Shown one piece after another: positions 3,112-13,093 of a stretch of 52,459 nucleotides of DNA (positions within the stretch are counted from its first letter, which is position 1; every line of letters starts with the position of its first letter). A program made the translations under genes and the position numbers. Location: UHGV virus genome UHGV-0060500; one strand, written 5' to 3'. The notes beneath the pieces are model-generated. The model did no database searches and had not been told where the DNA came from. It worked only from the letters and a program-made list of their open reading frames with translations. The stretch is from a virus.

Positions 3112-3318
3112 TCACACAATACGCATTGTGTTTCGTAATTCACCGCGCAGCACCCGCAGTGCATCACGCATTGGTACAAAAAACCGGTTAAATTTTACGT
3201 GTTTATATTTCCGCATCAGTGGCGGTGTATACACCTTTGCGTCGTATACTTCCCACGGATAATAAACACGCGTATCGTCGACAAACGTTTCAACTGAATA
3301 AAAGATTACCCGTCTCAT
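3112..3318 (-). CDS. Hypothetical protein (68 aa)
   Basis: ORF coupled to the upstream gene (overlap at 3315-3318). Confidence 0.35.
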   Translation of the reverse strand: MRRVIFYSVETFVDDTRVYYPWEVYDAKVYTPPLMRKYKHVKFNRFFVPMRDALRVLRGELRNTMRIV

Positions 3319-3908
3319 AATTCTAACCCCGTTTCACCGTTAAGTTTTTCGATCTCAAATACTGGTTTATCCGGTAACAGTCCGTTATTTTTCCGGTATT
3401 CATTCAGGCGGCTGTCAAAATCAAACGCGAGATCATTAGCGTGACCAAAGCGACCAGGTTTAAACAGTGAGTAAAAATTAAGGCCGTGTTTATTGGTATC
3501 TATGCAAAGCGTTTCATCCAGCACCATTAAACGCAGCGTGCGCGAAAGGTAATTCCACGGAATACCAGTTTCCGCGCTAATATCTCTCATTCGCTTTCTA
3601 ACGTTGTAGTCAGTAAATAACGCGGCTACACGCTCGCGTCGTTGTTCGTATAAATATTTAATTCGATAGCCCAGCAAGCGGCGGCGCGGGCCAAAATATG
3701 TATACACCCGCTCAACCAGATTAGTGTCGATCAGGTGTTTAACTGTTTCCGGCAAGCATCCGGCTTCGTCGTATTCCGCTGATAATCCGGTTTTCTGGCG
3801 TAGCTGGTGCATTGTTGCGATGCCATCAAGTTCAAGGATATTGATAATTTTTGCTTCAAGTTCAATGCTCATTGTTTTTCGCCTCGTTTTAAGCGCGAAA
3901 ACAGCCAC
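3315..3908 (-). CDS. Hypothetical protein (197 aa), replication/nin region
   Basis: Long ORF immediately downstream of the helicase gene in the same operon. Confidence 0.5.
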   Translation of the reverse strand: MAVFALKTRRKTMSIELEAKIINILELDGIATMHQLRQKTGLSAEYDEAGCLPETVKHLIDTNLVERVYTYFGPRRRLLGYRIKYLYEQRRERVAALFTDYNVRKRMRDISAETGIPWNYLSRTLRLMVLDETLCIDTNKHGLNFYSLFKPGRFGHANDLAFDFDSRLNEYRKNNGLLPDKPVFEIEKLNGETGLEL

Positions 3909-3951: not shown

Positions 3952-5367
3952 TTAAAAAGATGCGTTGTTCTGGCTGTTTCGTGGGGAGAATCTACTTGCC
4001 GCCGGACGTTGTTGCATTGACTGAATGCAAGCGGACGCCGCGCGGGCCTGGTCGCATGGGATGATGTTGCCGTTATCGTCAAACCGCTGGTAAACAGTCC
4101 CCGTTTTCCCGTGACGGTTTTTTGAAACGATGATCTCCATATATTCGCGGGCAACCGATTGTTCGTTGTAGTAGCCGTCGCGGTAGACCATGATGATCCG
4201 GTCTGCGTCCTGCTCAAGATTACCGGAATCACGCAGATCAGAATTGTTCGGGCGCTTGTTCGGTCGTTCCTCAACGCGGCGGGATAATTGCGCCAGCGCC
4301 GCCACTGGCACGCGCAACTCTTTCGCCATCATTTTCAATGACCACGACAATTGCCCTACGGCGAGATCATGACGTTCGGCCTTAGCCAGCTTCATTAACC
4401 CGATGTAGTCAATCATTACCATCCCCAGGTTAGGATGGTCCTGTTTCATCCGTTCGACGGTGGCGCGTATTTCCTCGACCGTTAACTGCGATGCGTCAAC
4501 AATCCACACATCGAGATCGGCAAGGGCACTCATTCCCTGGGCGACGTGCGCCCAACCTTCGTCATCCAGTTTTACCGGATTACGTAGGCAATCCGTTGAT
4601 AAGTTCCCAGCGCCAGCGATAGCACGTTCAGTCATCTGATCGAGCGACATTTCAAGCGTGAACAGCAAAACGCCGACCCGCTGACCTTCGCCGCCAGGGT
4701 ATGGACGTTCAGCCGCCGCGCGGGCAATTGCCAACGCCAACGCCGATTTACCAGACCCTGGGCGTCCGGCGATAAGCACCAGATCAGTAGCATTAATGCC
4801 GCCTAACATTTCGTCGAGTGGGTCAATACCTGTTTTGATGTTGTCAGAGTTCACGCCACACTCCATGCGTTTACTTAGCACTTCCGTGTATTCCTGGACC
4901 GCATCGCGCAACAGCACCGGGATAATTTGATCTTTTGTTACCTTTAATTTTGAATACCGGGAATCAAAATCTTTCATCGTCTCTTTGACGACCTCAAGTG
5001 TCCCAGTTTCCAGTTTGTAGCGCATATCGTCGATGAGTTCCAACATCTGCCGCCGCTGGTGCTCTTCACGTAGTAGCTGTGCATATCCCTTCAGGTTGGC
5101 AGCAGAAGGGCACGATCGCGCCGTTTGCATTAGCGGTACAAAGTTTTCATTACCAATCTCATCACCAACCAGTAACGCGTCGATAAGATTTCTGTTTCTG
5201 GCTTGCGCCCGGATAATTTCAAAAGCCCGCTTATATAGCGGAATAGTGAATACTTCAGGATCGAGCGTAGCAAGAACGTCTTGCGCGTTAGGTGTAAGCC
5301 CGCCTAACAGGAGTCCGCCTATCACAGCAGACTCTCGTTCTTGTCGCAGTGAGTTAACAGAATCCAT
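3952..5367 (-). CDS. Replicative DNA helicase, DnaB family
   Basis: 471 aa; Walker A GRPGSGKSALALAIA, DnaB-like N-terminal and RecA-like C-terminal regions. Confidence 0.9.
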   Translation of the reverse strand: MDSVNSLRQERESAVIGGLLLGGLTPNAQDVLATLDPEVFTIPLYKRAFEIIRAQARNRNLIDALLVGDEIGNENFVPLMQTARSCPSAANLKGYAQLLREEHQRRQMLELIDDMRYKLETGTLEVVKETMKDFDSRYSKLKVTKDQIIPVLLRDAVQEYTEVLSKRMECGVNSDNIKTGIDPLDEMLGGINATDLVLIAGRPGSGKSALALAIARAAAERPYPGGEGQRVGVLLFTLEMSLDQMTERAIAGAGNLSTDCLRNPVKLDDEGWAHVAQGMSALADLDVWIVDASQLTVEEIRATVERMKQDHPNLGMVMIDYIGLMKLAKAERHDLAVGQLSWSLKMMAKELRVPVAALAQLSRRVEERPNKRPNNSDLRDSGNLEQDADRIIMVYRDGYYNEQSVAREYMEIIVSKNRHGKTGTVYQRFDDNGNIIPCDQARAASACIQSMQQRPAASRFSPRNSQNNASF

Positions 5368-6681: not shown

Positions 6682-7818
6682 TTAGGATATAGCACAACGG
6701 AAAAACTTGCACCCCAAATAATCTTCAATGCGTTTTTGTCTTATCGCATCGCTTTTTACTTGCCGTTTGTGATGTGACTCATCAATTTCTACAGCAACGT
6801 TATTCACAGGATCGTAGCCATCAATAAAATACTTATTGCCAGCAACATCAACAGGATATTGCCTTATTAATTTAACTCCTTTTAGTTTTTCATACATAGT
6901 TAAGCCAGCATGTTCATAACGCTTCCTAATCATATTTTTACAATTATCTCTCATTTCTGATAATTTCGAGTCGTACTCCTTTTTTATTTCTTCAATTACA
7001 TTTTTATCGCTTTTTAATTCAATAAAGTTTTCTATGTCGTTATAATTCCCGCATTCAAAATTATTATTAAGACCTTTATTTTCACCCCATGCATGATACT
7101 TTTCTGCTATCTTATCGCTAATATATCTTTCATACCCATAATTTGTTTTAACTATAAAATATTCAATATTTAAATCAATGGTAAACTCATCATTATTGAG
7201 GTGTTCAGTTAAAAACGCATCTGGATCTGCAATATCGCTTGAATGGAACAACCTTACCCATAGCTTTTCTATTGATACTCCGCGAGTGACGAACAACCAT
7301 TTTTTGTACTTTTCAGCATCTTCTTTTGACACATACACAGAACATCGCCCAGGAGTATCACTCGTTTCAACATAATTGTTACACCATAAAATATAATTAT
7401 AAGCATAAGGACTATCTTTTTTGGTGTTATTTGAATATGTATTAAAGATATCTTGCAAGTCAACTAATCCACAAGATTCAATAACTGGCTTAACCCATTT
7501 TTCATTATATTCATAATGTCTATATTTACCAGGTGTAACGAATCTAATAAACGTTATGGGTGTGATATACACATCATCACCATCAACAATAAAATCCTTG
7601 TATTCCTCAAATCCGTAAAGATCAGAGTATTTAACAAATGATTTAAGTCTATCAATTTCAAGTTCAGAAACCAGATTATTAACAGACAGTAATTGCGTGT
7701 CCTTACAATTGAGTTTCATATGATAAGTAGCAATCACATATACCTCCTTTATTAATTTTCTATATAACGCCTCAGACGCGCTACAACGCAAAAATCCCAC
7801 CGCGTAACCCGTTTGCAC
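6682..7818 (-). CDS. AT-rich moron protein with C-terminal PD-(D/E)xK (DUF559/Vsr-like) nuclease-like domain; true start probably 7720-7745
   Basis: Markedly lower GC than neighbours; C-terminus YPVDVAGNKYFIDGYDPVNNVAVEIDESHHKRQ...RQKRIEDYLGCKFFR fits the restriction-endonuclease-like fold pattern; strong SD AAGGAGG near 7750. Confidence 0.55.
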   Translation of the reverse strand: MQTGYAVGFLRCSASEALYRKLIKEVYVIATYHMKLNCKDTQLLSVNNLVSELEIDRLKSFVKYSDLYGFEEYKDFIVDGDDVYITPITFIRFVTPGKYRHYEYNEKWVKPVIESCGLVDLQDIFNTYSNNTKKDSPYAYNYILWCNNYVETSDTPGRCSVYVSKEDAEKYKKWLFVTRGVSIEKLWVRLFHSSDIADPDAFLTEHLNNDEFTIDLNIEYFIVKTNYGYERYISDKIAEKYHAWGENKGLNNNFECGNYNDIENFIELKSDKNVIEEIKKEYDSKLSEMRDNCKNMIRKRYEHAGLTMYEKLKGVKLIRQYPVDVAGNKYFIDGYDPVNNVAVEIDESHHKRQVKSDAIRQKRIEDYLGCKFFRCAIS

Positions 7819-7890
7819 AGGTTGCAGTGTCTTATTGCGCCAGAGACGCTATCAGGTGGCTAATTTTCGGTTTACAGACTGGTAGGTAGG

Positions 7891-7992
7891 TTATGGATTA
7901 ACGAGAAGGTACAAACCGCCGAACAAAACGACGTTAACATCTATTGCCGCAGCTATGGCGAAAGCCAGGGCGAAAACGTGTTTACTATCCAT
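7891..7992 (-). CDS. Tiny hydrophobic peptide (33 aa, MDSKHVFALAFAIAAAIDVNVVLFGGLYLLVNP)
   Basis: ATG preceded by GAGAGGA; single predicted TM helix; between the O-like gene and the AT-rich moron. Confidence 0.3.
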   Translation of the reverse strand: MDSKHVFALAFAIAAAIDVNVVLFGGLYLLVNP

Positions 7993-8125
7993 TTTAAAAT
8001 CCTCTCTGTAACGCTCTCTAACGAGCTAATCGCAAAAAGGTAAGCAAGTGTAGCACCACATGCGATTTAGCTCGCTGGTGAGGTTGTTTTGTGGGTAATT
8101 TTGGATTTTTGCGGATCGTGGTTGG

Positions 8126-9067
8126 TCAAAGAGCGCCAGCGCGCGTATCACGTAGCGTTTTTGGTTTAAGCAGGAAATCAAGTGTCGCAGTGAAGCCATT
8201 GCCGAAGTAAAAATCTGAAGCCGTGTTTTTGAACGTTTCGAAGTAGGCGACAAAGCCGTTAATGCTTTTGTCTTTCAGGTAGTCAGTGAACGCATAGATC
8301 TTGCGTTCAAGATCCCGATCCAGTTCGGCAGGTGGTAACAGGCCGTCAAACGTGCTGTTAAATGCTTCCACCACGTCGGCAGCGTTTACAGTAGATGATA
8401 GCTTGCGCCATTGTTCAGCATCAGCCAGATACCCATCGAATTTAGTTACCCGGCAAATGTTAACAGGCTTAGGCACTCCACCACGGCTACGCCATTGTGT
8501 CAAAGCCCATTCGATTACTAATGTGATCTCATCCTCCGTGTATGCCTTACGTGTTTTTGTTTCTGTCAGTAGTTCGATAAATGGTTTAGCGTCACGACAC
8601 TTGCATCCTGCCTTGTCGTTGTAGAAGGCCAGGCAACGATAAGCCGCCAGATTAACCTCCCGATCTTCTTCGCTGATAGACCAGTCTTTTTCCAATACAC
8701 GGAGTGTATTGTTTTTAATGTTCTCTTTACTGGTTATATATGACTGGTTAGGGTGACTCTGTGACACTACCCCCGGTGACTCTGTGTCACTACCCCGGTG
8801 ACTCTGTGTCACTACCCCCGGTGTCACAGTGACACTACCATGCAATGACGGAAGGACTATTACATAGAAATTACTAGTTTGCTCTTTTCCTCCGATTAAG
8901 TATCTTGGTTGTTTAATCAACAACCCTTTTTCACAAAGTGAGTCTACAGCCCTCATAGCTGTTCTTTTGCTGATCTCACACTCCTTTGCTATGTGATGGT
9001 AAGAAGGGTAACACTCGCCGTTATCATTAGCGTTATCAGCTAACTTCAACAGCACTAGTTTGTGCAT
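8126..9067 (-). CDS. Replication initiation protein (lambda O-like, N-terminal winged HTH, conserved phage C-terminal domain)
   Basis: N-terminus LKLADNANDNGECYPSYHHIAKECEISKRTAMRAV typical of phage replication initiator HTH; iterons inside the gene; start taken at Met 9067 (SD GAGGT), longer ORF-track start to 9133 is unlikely. Confidence 0.75.
   Translation of the reverse strand: MHKLVLLKLADNANDNGECYPSYHHIAKECEISKRTAMRAVDSLCEKGLLIKQPRYLIGGKEQTSNFYVIVLPSLHGSVTVTPGVVTQSHRGSDTESPGVVSQSHPNQSYITSKENIKNNTLRVLEKDWSISEEDREVNLAAYRCLAFYNDKAGCKCRDAKPFIELLTETKTRKAYTEDEITLVIEWALTQWRSRGGVPKPVNICRVTKFDGYLADAEQWRKLSSTVNAADVVEAFNSTFDGLLPPAELDRDLERKIYAFTDYLKDKSINGFVAYFETFKNTASDFYFGNGFTATLDFLLKPKTLRDTRAGAL
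8752..8840. repeat. Origin iterons: three and a half copies of the 22-23 bp repeat GGTGACTCTGTGTCACTACCCC inside the O-like gene, followed by an AT-rich segment
   Basis: Direct tandem repeats each containing the inverted half-sites GTGAC/GTCAC; the AT-rich stretch 8690-8750 lies downstream in the O reading direction, as in lambda ori. Confidence 0.7.
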
Positions 9068-9232
9068 TGGGTCGCCGACCTCAGTATGGAAGACCTCTAC
9101 CATTAGCCGCATACTCATAAGCATTAACCTCATGGCGAACTAAAACATTAACTGATAAACACAGAAGAAACCTGGCAGCTGGCTGATTAGGCCGCTTCTT
9201 TTCAGTTGATGCAGTGCAGAGATAGTGTCGCG

Positions 9233-9385
9233 TTACGAAATTTCGCACATTTCCGCGATCTCTTCTGGCGTTACTTCGCTTTTGCCGTTGCATCCAGCCT
9301 TTGTTGCCAGTGCAATTAAGATGAGTTTTTGCGCCGGATCATTGTTATTCAGGCGAATATCAAAAGCCTTGCGCACGTAATACAT
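9233..9385 (-). CDS. Small protein (50 aa) paralogous to the N-terminal HTH segment of the O-like initiator
   Basis: DPAQKLILIALATKAGCNGKSEVTPEEIAEMCEIS aligns with O residues DPMHKLVLLKLADNANDNGECYPSYHHIAKECEIS; strong SD AGGAGA 8 nt upstream of the ATG at 9385. Confidence 0.45.
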   Translation of the reverse strand: MYYVRKAFDIRLNNNDPAQKLILIALATKAGCNGKSEVTPEEIAEMCEIS

Positions 9386-9427
9386 ATTCTTTTCTCCTAT
9401 GGTTAGAGTGAACGCGCGGGCGGGCAT

Positions 9428-12630: not shown

Positions 12631-12855
12631 ATGATTGAAGAAAAAGAAGTAGACAAGGAAATTCCTGACGGTTGTGATGAGCTTATTTGTTTTGACGGCG
12701 GCCTGTATGAGTTCGAAACGTCTGCAGGGTGGCACGATAAATGGCCTAAGCCTACTCGCCAGGAATTAAGCGACCGTAAATCATTCGGCGAAGATGCCGA
12801 ACGGCTGGCTAATAACAAATGGCTTGATAAGTTAATTGCGGAGGGTGGCAAATGA
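12631..12855 (+). CDS. Hypothetical protein (74 aa)
   Basis: ORF with coupled stop/start to the next gene. Confidence 0.4.
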   Translation: MIEEKEVDKEIPDGCDELICFDGGLYEFETSAGWHDKWPKPTRQELSDRKSFGEDAERLANNKWLDKLIAEGGK

Positions 12856-12965
12856 GCTTTGCAAAAATTGCCGCATTGCTTGCGGCTTTATCTATCGCCG
12901 TGCTGTATCTCAGTGTATCTCTTTATATCACGGTAGCGATCATTAAACTCATTACTAACATGTGA
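12852..12965 (+). CDS. Small membrane protein (37 aa)
   Basis: MSFAKIAALLAALSIAVLYLSVSLYITVAIIKLITNM; ATGA overlap with the upstream stop. Confidence 0.35.
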   Translation: MSFAKIAALLAALSIAVLYLSVSLYITVAIIKLITNM

Positions 12966-12973
12966 GGCCAATC

Positions 12974-13093
12974 ATGAAAGTCGGTAAGGATATTGTGACT
13001 GTCGCGTTTTGCATTATTTGCTTCCTGTTTGTGGTTGTTTCTTGTGGCGCATTTGCTGCGTTGGTTAGCTTTATTTTTAGAGGGTTGCCGTGA
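12974..13093 (+). CDS. Small membrane protein (39 aa)
   Basis: MKVGKDIVTVAFCIICFLFVVVSCGAFAALVSFIFRGLP; follows the previous small membrane ORF. Confidence 0.35.
   Translation: MKVGKDIVTVAFCIICFLFVVVSCGAFAALVSFIFRGLP

Follow-up and report, generated by a model that had tools for sequence, protein, structure and literature searches.

Does a 33-codon open reading frame in the early region of a temperate coliphage encode a genuine protein, and if so, what could so short and hydrophobic a product do? The question was raised by a minus-strand ORF (hereafter the micro-ORF, and its product the micro-protein) in the UHGV virus genome UHGV-0060500, of which the whole stretch of 52,459 nucleotides was analyzed and is referred to here as the window. 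The micro-ORF is a real, previously uncharacterized and mostly unannotated gene for a 33-residue membrane protein, accessory and modular in nature, and the reading of its sequence that we moderately favor overall is that of an early inner-membrane micro-protein which would act by helix packing.

Translation signals of the micro-ORF

The gene and its ribosome-binding site lie as follows.

7891-7992, minus strand: coding sequence of the micro-protein, 33 codons, ATG at 7992-7990 and TAA at 7893-7891 (ORF listing)
8000-8006, minus strand: Shine-Dalgarno (SD) sequence GAGAGGA, 7 nt before the ATG (from the sequence)

An earlier note, made from the letters of this DNA, had described the ORF with exactly this location, strand, length and ATG start, and the ORF listing agrees with it in full; the minus-strand translation is MDSKHVFALAFAIAAAIDVNVVLFGGLYLLVNP. 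The GAGAGGA that the note had judged a good SD was indeed located at 8006-8000 and is conserved among relatives, nearly all of which retain both the SD region (AGAGAGGAT) and the ATG. The ORF listing of the window contained no plus-strand ORF of 25 or more amino acids overlapping the micro-ORF, and a promoter scan of the window found no sigma-70-like promoter in front of it.

The likelihood of such an arrangement arising fortuitously was estimated with a filter that required the ATG to be the first start, an SD core 5-16 nt upstream, a length of 25-60 codons and a hydrophobic stretch of transmembrane (TM) grade. Three ORFs passed in the entire window, namely the micro-ORF and a pair at 12852 and 12974, against a mean of 0.07 ORFs across 30 block-shuffled windows; the combination of SD, length and hydrophobicity seen in the micro-ORF exceeds chance. 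Existing annotation has largely passed it over: PGAP has never annotated it in any E. coli prophage examined and the mEp021 reference record omits it, while PHANOTATE-based records list it as hypothetical (mEp013_13, and CDS0006 of MagusPhagus).

Host phage and genetic neighborhood

The window is a temperate coliphage of the mEpimmI group (mEp021-like), the archetype of which is mEp021. The 501-nt region around the micro-ORF is 87-91% identical to six mEp phages and MagusPhagus, and also matches 33 complete E. coli genomes. The mEpimmI group has been described (PMC11893012), and its leftward operon is headed by nutL and antiterminated by the N-like protein Gp17 (PMC11893012). On the minus strand, a gp14-like HTH gene is followed by an O-like gene, a conserved spacer of 133 nt and the micro-ORF, after which come a conserved spacer of about 150 nt, an AT-rich cargo gene, the 372-aa gp11 gene and a DnaB-type helicase gene. 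The two neighbors nearest the micro-ORF are listed below.

8126-9133, minus strand: O-like replication initiator gene, HTH_36 / DnaD_N-like (Pfam, and annotations in relatives)
6682-7737, minus strand: AT-rich cargo gene for a DUF559 / PvuRts1I-like nuclease of 351 aa, likely GTG start at 7737 after AAGGAGG

Considering this gene order, the published Gp17/nutL control and the absence of a promoter-like site in front, we infer that the micro-ORF is an early gene of the leftward operon and is silent in the lysogen.

The earlier note had also placed the micro-ORF next to an AT-rich gene, and the base composition bears this out, the GC content being 0.28-0.33 over positions ~6700-7700 as compared with 0.45-0.50 in the flanks. 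The product of this cargo gene matched DUF559 in Pfam (2e-4) and mREase_II in PADLOC (1.3e-8), with the nuclease domain at the C-terminus, and has a homologue in a 351-aa PGAP protein of E. coli M15; from these sequence matches it is likely a modification-dependent restriction or defense gene. The contents of the cargo slot vary among relatives, and include a zinc-ribbon protein in mEp021, a 178-aa hypothetical protein in mEp013 and a Rha-family regulator in several prophages, while the slot is empty in MagusPhagus and in two prophages.

Two features of the upstream genes may be recorded here. Three iteron-like direct repeats of about 22 nt (GGTGACTCTGTGTCACTACCCC), together with an inverted copy, occupy positions 8729-8839 inside the O-like gene, and by analogy to lambda they presumably constitute the replication origin. 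The gp14-like HTH gene (~9233-9390, minus strand) has a TAA where mEp013 and mEp021 have TTA, which shortens it to approximately 50 of 81 residues in the window phage.

Selection acts on the encoded protein

The earlier note had proposed conservation analysis as a check, and had held that a frame not kept in relatives would speak against the gene. Relatives were therefore collected without regard to the frame, from megablast loci and by a flank-anchored pattern (AGAGAGGATTT, a gap of 120-145 nt, and AAATTAGCCACCTGA). The frame proved to be strongly conserved: all 33 codons were intact in 34 of 34 such relatives, with no indel and no premature stop. When changes were counted by Fitch parsimony on a neighbor-joining tree of this set, those in the micro-ORF fell 15, 20 and 76 times on codon positions 1, 2 and 3, whereas the flanks lacked periodicity (64/64/76 upstream and 73/87/67 downstream). 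The median pairwise Nei-Gojobori dN/dS was 0.15 over 590 pairs, drawn from 36 distinct ORF sequences at 66 loci and restricted to pairs with dS above 0.1. It is to be noted that one antisense frame, in which the third positions coincide with those of the sense frame, is open as well. A conserved start was not found for it and its stops shift among the relatives, and it was rejected as the selected frame on these grounds. Purifying selection maintains the minus-strand ORF at 7992-7891 as a genuine protein-coding gene.

A contrary reading, which we consider very unlikely, is that the micro-ORF is untranslated and owes its conservation to an element in the DNA or RNA, for instance a linker for recombination, a site bound by protein or part of a structured early transcript. 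Both flanks are likewise conserved and structured, PGAP skips the micro-ORF and the reverse frame is open, all of which would fit such an element; however, the strong three-base periodicity is restricted to the micro-ORF, a dN/dS of 0.15 is unexpected of it, the reverse frame has no conserved start, and the start, an SD, the stop and the length are all kept in three unrelated contexts, to which we now turn.

Recurrence in unrelated contexts

Homologues of the micro-ORF occur in three genomic contexts, of which the mEpimmI operon is one. In the second (L068), the upstream gene encodes a different replication-type protein and ends 10 nt before the micro-ORF, such that the 133-nt spacer and the GAGAGGA are absent and an AGGAG stands 7 nt before the ATG instead; the micro-ORF (MNAKRMLDLAFATAMAIVVNVVLFGSLYLLVNP) and the element 3' of it are retained, with a gp11 protein of only 60% identity. 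In the third (L065, L066 and L067), the homologue lies within a one-directional, early-region-like array of small genes, with flanks unrelated to mEpimmI, on contigs that show patchy similarity of about 70% to the rV5-like Vequintavirinae. The gene is followed here by a canonical intrinsic terminator and then by a TTGACA-17-TAAAAT promoter for the next gene. The alleles of these contigs, P0011 (MDNKRMFALVFAFVMAIVVNAILFGGLFMLVNP) and P0047 (MNSKRMFALVFAFVMAIAVNVILFGGLFMLVNP), are again 33 aa long and at least 64% identical to the window peptide. The L065 copy (P0011) has diverged to 66% nucleotide identity from the window ORF, with 18 synonymous and 16 mostly conservative non-synonymous differences, yet the protein is recognizably the same, which further argues against a DNA or RNA element.

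Nothing argues more strongly for the protein itself as the functional unit than this recurrence of the 33-residue protein between unrelated flanks, which is also the main reason for which the DNA-element reading, as well as the leader-peptide reading considered below, was rejected. The micro-protein is common to two unrelated coliphage types, the mEpimmI temperate phages and the rV5-like-related ones, and its gene is accessory, moving between phage genomes as a self-contained unit. The other TM micro-ORFs in the L065 array also suggest that early regions of virulent coliphages hold a pool of such genes.

Within the mEpimmI group itself the gene is dispensable. It was present in 33 of the 35 complete E. 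coli genomes that carry the downstream gp11, and hence does not belong to the mEpimmI core (PMC11893012). In the PAR and KKa019 prophages (L062 and L063, at 3138-3371 in both), its slot is occupied by a 77-aa MarR_2/HTH gene flanked by recognizably the same 5' and 3' elements; the slot of the micro-ORF, which is distinct from the cargo slot downstream, is thus a position at which cassettes can be exchanged. In one gut metagenome lineage (L005/L041, L010 and L015), the ATG has changed to ATT, along with the replacements A8T, L9Q and A15V; relative to the nearest intact relative there are five nucleotide changes, none of them synonymous, and this copy is probably decaying. In L010 the unit is found twice, 235 nt apart, at the contig end, and this may be an assembly artefact.

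Overall, the family is narrow and, as far as seen, confined to phages of E. coli. A HMMER search over 1.84 billion cluster representatives returned only the micro-protein family and two low-complexity artefacts, and a profile search of 5.8 billion clusters, in which the first profile row was a 78-aa over-extended homologue, returned 42 clusters, all of them the 33-residue protein or its upstream over-extensions. The largest clusters comprise 456, 152 and 103 contigs, nearly all sources naming the protein 'hypothetical'; the window allele is recorded on 36 contigs of the protein collection, and eighteen further metagenome contigs carry the micro-ORF. A tblastn search against phages, hampered by the low-complexity filter, yielded 2-3 records, and among one-genome-per-species representatives there were 0 matches to the peptide pattern and 0 relatives of the neighboring gp11 protein, the phage group being absent from that set.

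These searches also bear on the reading, extremely improbable in our estimate, that the micro-ORF is the remnant N-terminal signal-anchor of a larger gene cut by cargo insertion. That it borders a variable slot for insertions would agree with such an origin; nonetheless, it has exactly 33 codons everywhere, including the cargo-less MagusPhagus, L060 and L061 as well as the rV5-like-related contigs, and no longer homologue exists among the 1.8 billion cluster representatives, the longer matches being upstream over-extensions.

Flanking structures and possible module junctions

The spacers on the two sides of the micro-ORF contain the following features.

8022-8075, minus strand: 5' hairpin between the O-like gene and the micro-ORF, with arms GCGAGCUAAAUCGCA and UGCGAUUAGCUCG (RNA fold)
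7778-7849, minus strand: 3' extended hairpin, terminator-like, with a U-run at 7794-7790, conserved in all relatives
8004-8039, minus strand: upstream copy of a junction repeat of ~35 nt (TTTTTGCGAT-TAGCTCGTTAGAGAGCGTTACAGAGA) (local alignment)
7759-7794, minus strand: downstream copy of the junction repeat (TTTTTGCGTTGTAGCGCGTCTGAGGCGTTATATAGA), at the boundary between the part homologous to relatives and the cargo

The fold of the upstream spacer (7993-8125) has a predicted energy of -32.6 kcal/mol (z = -3.9), and none of 200 shuffles was as stable. A C-rich, G-poor tract (8076-8125) stands directly after the stop of the O-like gene and before the 5' hairpin, and from its composition and fold the region 8022-8125 could serve as a Rho-loading site with a processing or termination structure. 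The 3' hairpin, which carries an A-tract and a U-tract and was missed by a simple terminator scan, folds at -33.9 kcal/mol (z = -2.0) in the window and at -40 kcal/mol (z = -3.8) in mEp013. It stays in place whatever gene occupies the slot, being present in L068 and also in L062/L063, in which another gene replaces the ORF. On both flanks, RNAalifold returned stable helices with almost exclusively one-sided changes and few compensatory ones; RNA structure is plausible in both spacers from these models, but because of the near absence of compensatory changes no defined RNA element is claimed. A search of the micro-ORF region against Rfam found no family, the only hits being sub-threshold chance matches.

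A terminator-like structure behind a short ORF invites comparison with leader peptides of the TnaC type. The micro-ORF would then act in cis, its translation or a stalling at Pro-stop controlling a terminator in the 3' element, whether Rho-dependent or intrinsic, that gates the cargo and replication genes as in TnaC. Like the TnaC-type leaders, the micro-ORF is short, ends in an almost invariant Asn-Pro-stop and is followed by a C-rich, G-poor stretch and then by the conserved terminator-like hairpin with its U-run; its C-terminal half is also the most conserved part. However, the rV5-like-related contigs keep the protein with many synonymous changes, between unrelated flanks and before a plain terminator, while the 3' element is kept where the MarR-like gene replaces the micro-ORF. 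The two thus separate freely, the ORF being found without the element in L065-L067 and the element without the ORF in L062 and L063. Moreover, the micro-protein has the composition of a TM helix throughout, unlike known arrest peptides, and is conserved independently of the downstream sequence, which sets it apart from the TnaC-type leaders. The operon is in any case antiterminated by Gp17 (PMC11893012). Regulation by a leader peptide is, in sum, highly improbable.

The junction repeat, with the pattern TTTTTGCG..TAGC.CGT...GAG.GCGTTA.A.AGA, is found ahead of the micro-ORF and again ahead of the start of the cargo, as a direct repeat that brackets the micro-ORF and its 3' element. For the 75 nt preceding the micro-ORF, local alignment with the pre-cargo region gave scores of 30 (window) and 39 (L064), and in L064 the cargo (Rha) gene reuses CGTTGTAGAGCGTTACAGAGAGGATTT as its ribosome-binding region; no further copies of the motif were found elsewhere in the window. 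From their sequence and placement, we infer that the repeats may be module junctions for recombinational exchange of cassettes. In practical terms, the micro-ORF marks a fixed border of the cargo slot, with its nucleases and regulators, and thus aids the reading of defense and moron islands in this phage group.

The micro-protein as a predicted single transmembrane helix

The earlier note had predicted a single TM helix, and two approaches agree on this point: on the Kyte-Doolittle scale the best stretch of 19 residues begins at residue 6 and has a mean of 2.40 (mean hydropathy of 2.4-2.7), and AlphaFold2 models one helix over residues 3-31 with a mean pLDDT of 94.8. The hydrophobic helix spans about 26 residues (approximately 6-31), preceded by an N-terminus of the form M-(D/N)-(G/S/N)-K-(H/R) and followed by just two residues, Asn-Pro. 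Alignment of twelve sequences showed K4, F7, F11, A12, I17, V19, N20, L23, F24, G25, L27, L30, N32 and P33 to be invariant; it is to be noted that rare variants exist at some of these positions in a wider protein set, and that the family is shallow, most members being more than 75% identical, so that invariance of a residue is weak evidence. Within the helix, Asn20 lies mid-membrane, and the motif F24-G25-(G/S)26 is found together with an Ala-rich surface. The window allele also places Asp18 within the helix, and its insertion is predicted to be less favorable as a result.

No known family accommodates the micro-protein. Searches of PHROGs v4, Pfam-A and NCBIfam 20 gave 0 families at E <= 10, PADLOC 2.0 gave 0 families at E <= 0.1, and the sole match among PDB sequences (E = 1.3) was an unrelated oxidoreductase. 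An identity with Ipe, the haemolysis-inducing protein of mEp021, was considered and rejected, Ipe being the 77-aa product of ORF-4.3.

Proposed role in the inner membrane

Two groups of proteins offer the closest functional parallels. MgrB, AcrZ, SgrT, MgtS, KdpF and CydX are bacterial small membrane regulators of 30-50 residues, with one TM helix and few polar terminal residues; proteins of this kind often escape annotation, and they work by packing onto larger proteins of the membrane. The micro-protein is like them in size and topology, but has no sequence similarity to them (NCBIfam and Pfam being negative), and differs in being phage-borne and encoded in an early replication operon. The second group consists of phage-encoded, membrane-anchored accessory proteins such as T4 Imm, HK97 gp15 and phi29 p16.7/p1, which exclude superinfecting DNA or reorganize the membrane. 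The micro-protein would share such an accessory, membrane-anchored function with them, and the phi29 genes, like the micro-ORF, adjoin replication genes; however, all of these carry soluble domains and reach two to four times the length of the micro-protein, the prophage expresses HK97 gp15, and PHROGs detected no similarity between the micro-protein and phage early membrane proteins. By analogy, the micro-protein may work most like one or the other group, while being a member of neither.

The course of events that we propose is as follows. The leftward early operon of mEpimmI, under repressor control and antiterminated by Gp17 via nutL, would transcribe the micro-ORF together with the replication genes, such that synthesis of the micro-protein would begin soon after infection or induction, the quiescent lysogen producing none. 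Its insertion into the inner membrane would take place after translation, because a chain of 33 residues is scarcely longer than the exit tunnel and translation would end before it could leave the ribosome. The N-terminal Lys and His/Arg, contrasting with an Asn-Pro C-terminus, predict an N-in/C-out orientation by the positive-inside rule. The micro-protein would then work inside the bilayer by helix-helix packing, as suggested by the mid-span Asn20, the F24-G25-(G/S)26 motif and the Ala-rich or small-residue surfaces; an Asn in mid-bilayer drives the association of TM helices. We tentatively propose that it binds and modulates a larger inner-membrane protein or complex, as small membrane regulators of bacteria and phage factors for early exclusion or host takeover do.

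The main alternative to such packing is that the micro-protein is a membrane-damaging toxin or viroporin, a self-assembled leak or pore of which would lower the proton-motive force (PMF), in effect like the type I toxins TisB, IbsC and ShoB, or a pinholin. We regard this as unlikely, although not for want of resemblance: its size (33 aa, thus under 60), extreme hydrophobicity and single helix fit the class, the type I toxins (TisB, IbsC, ShoB, LdrD and Hok) being themselves small hydrophobic helical peptides of the inner membrane. The mid-membrane Asn, joined by Asp18 in the window allele, could line a small pore, and for an early gene found in two phage types a transient depolarization could block superinfection. 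On the other hand, almost no polar residues are available for lining a pore, and the helix is almost devoid of polar or charged residues in comparison with the type I toxins, to which it is not homologous; indeed, it matches no toxin family. The architecture of type I systems, including an antisense RNA and a promoter of the gene's own, was not found: no opposite-strand promoter-like site overlaps the ends of the micro-ORF, Rfam gave no match, and conservation does not extend to the antisense side as a unit; the sequence just 3' of the stop varies, and both flanks are replaced in the rV5-like-related contigs. Furthermore, the micro-ORF sits in a polycistronic phage operon, distant from the lysis genes, and lacks a charged holin C-terminal tail. 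A holin or pinholin proper was rejected in view of its position between the replication initiator and helicase genes and its C-terminus of only Asn-Pro. Lastly, the co-transcribed replication genes require an energized cell, which is the reason for which binding to a partner is favored over a leak or pore.

A bolder extension of the partner-binding proposal, improbable as it stands, is that the peptide is a mobile 'plug-in' traded between mEpimmI and virulent rV5-like-related coliphages, by which an inner-membrane machine of E. coli is neutralized or hijacked early in infection. Candidate targets would be a membrane-anchored abortive-infection or defense effector, or else a DNA-entry or PMF-dependent component of competing phages, and the Asn20-centered helix interface would be a candidate for the entire inhibitor.

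If the micro-protein is only a dispensable membrane peptide, the finding is an ordinary one, and in any event it will not surprise the specialist. The micro-protein exemplifies the small membrane proteins that annotation systematically misses, here on several hundred public contigs, and it is common to a temperate phage group prevalent in the human gut and an unrelated lineage of virulent type. It is also a clean and cheap candidate for studies of phage micro-protein function, being short enough to synthesize, to tag and to mutate at a single Asn.

Additional transmembrane micro-ORFs

The earlier note had suggested that the phage carries several small membrane micro-ORFs that resemble one another. 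The first part of this suggestion stands, since two further SD-preceded TM ORFs lie next to each other on the opposite strand.

12852-12965 and 12962/12974-13093, plus strand: two SD-preceded TM micro-ORFs of 37 and 43/39 aa, overlapping their neighbors by 4 nt

The second part does not extend beyond composition: comparison of the micro-ORF with this pair revealed no evident sequence similarity and no common database family. The DNA at 12852-13093 is about 90% identical in six mEp phages, and its equivalent is left unannotated in the mEp021 record, which shows a predicted terminator only. The rV5-like-related contig L065 also encodes other single-TM micro-ORFs of 33-38 aa within its array, at 1506-1616, 4560-4661 and 7104-7220.
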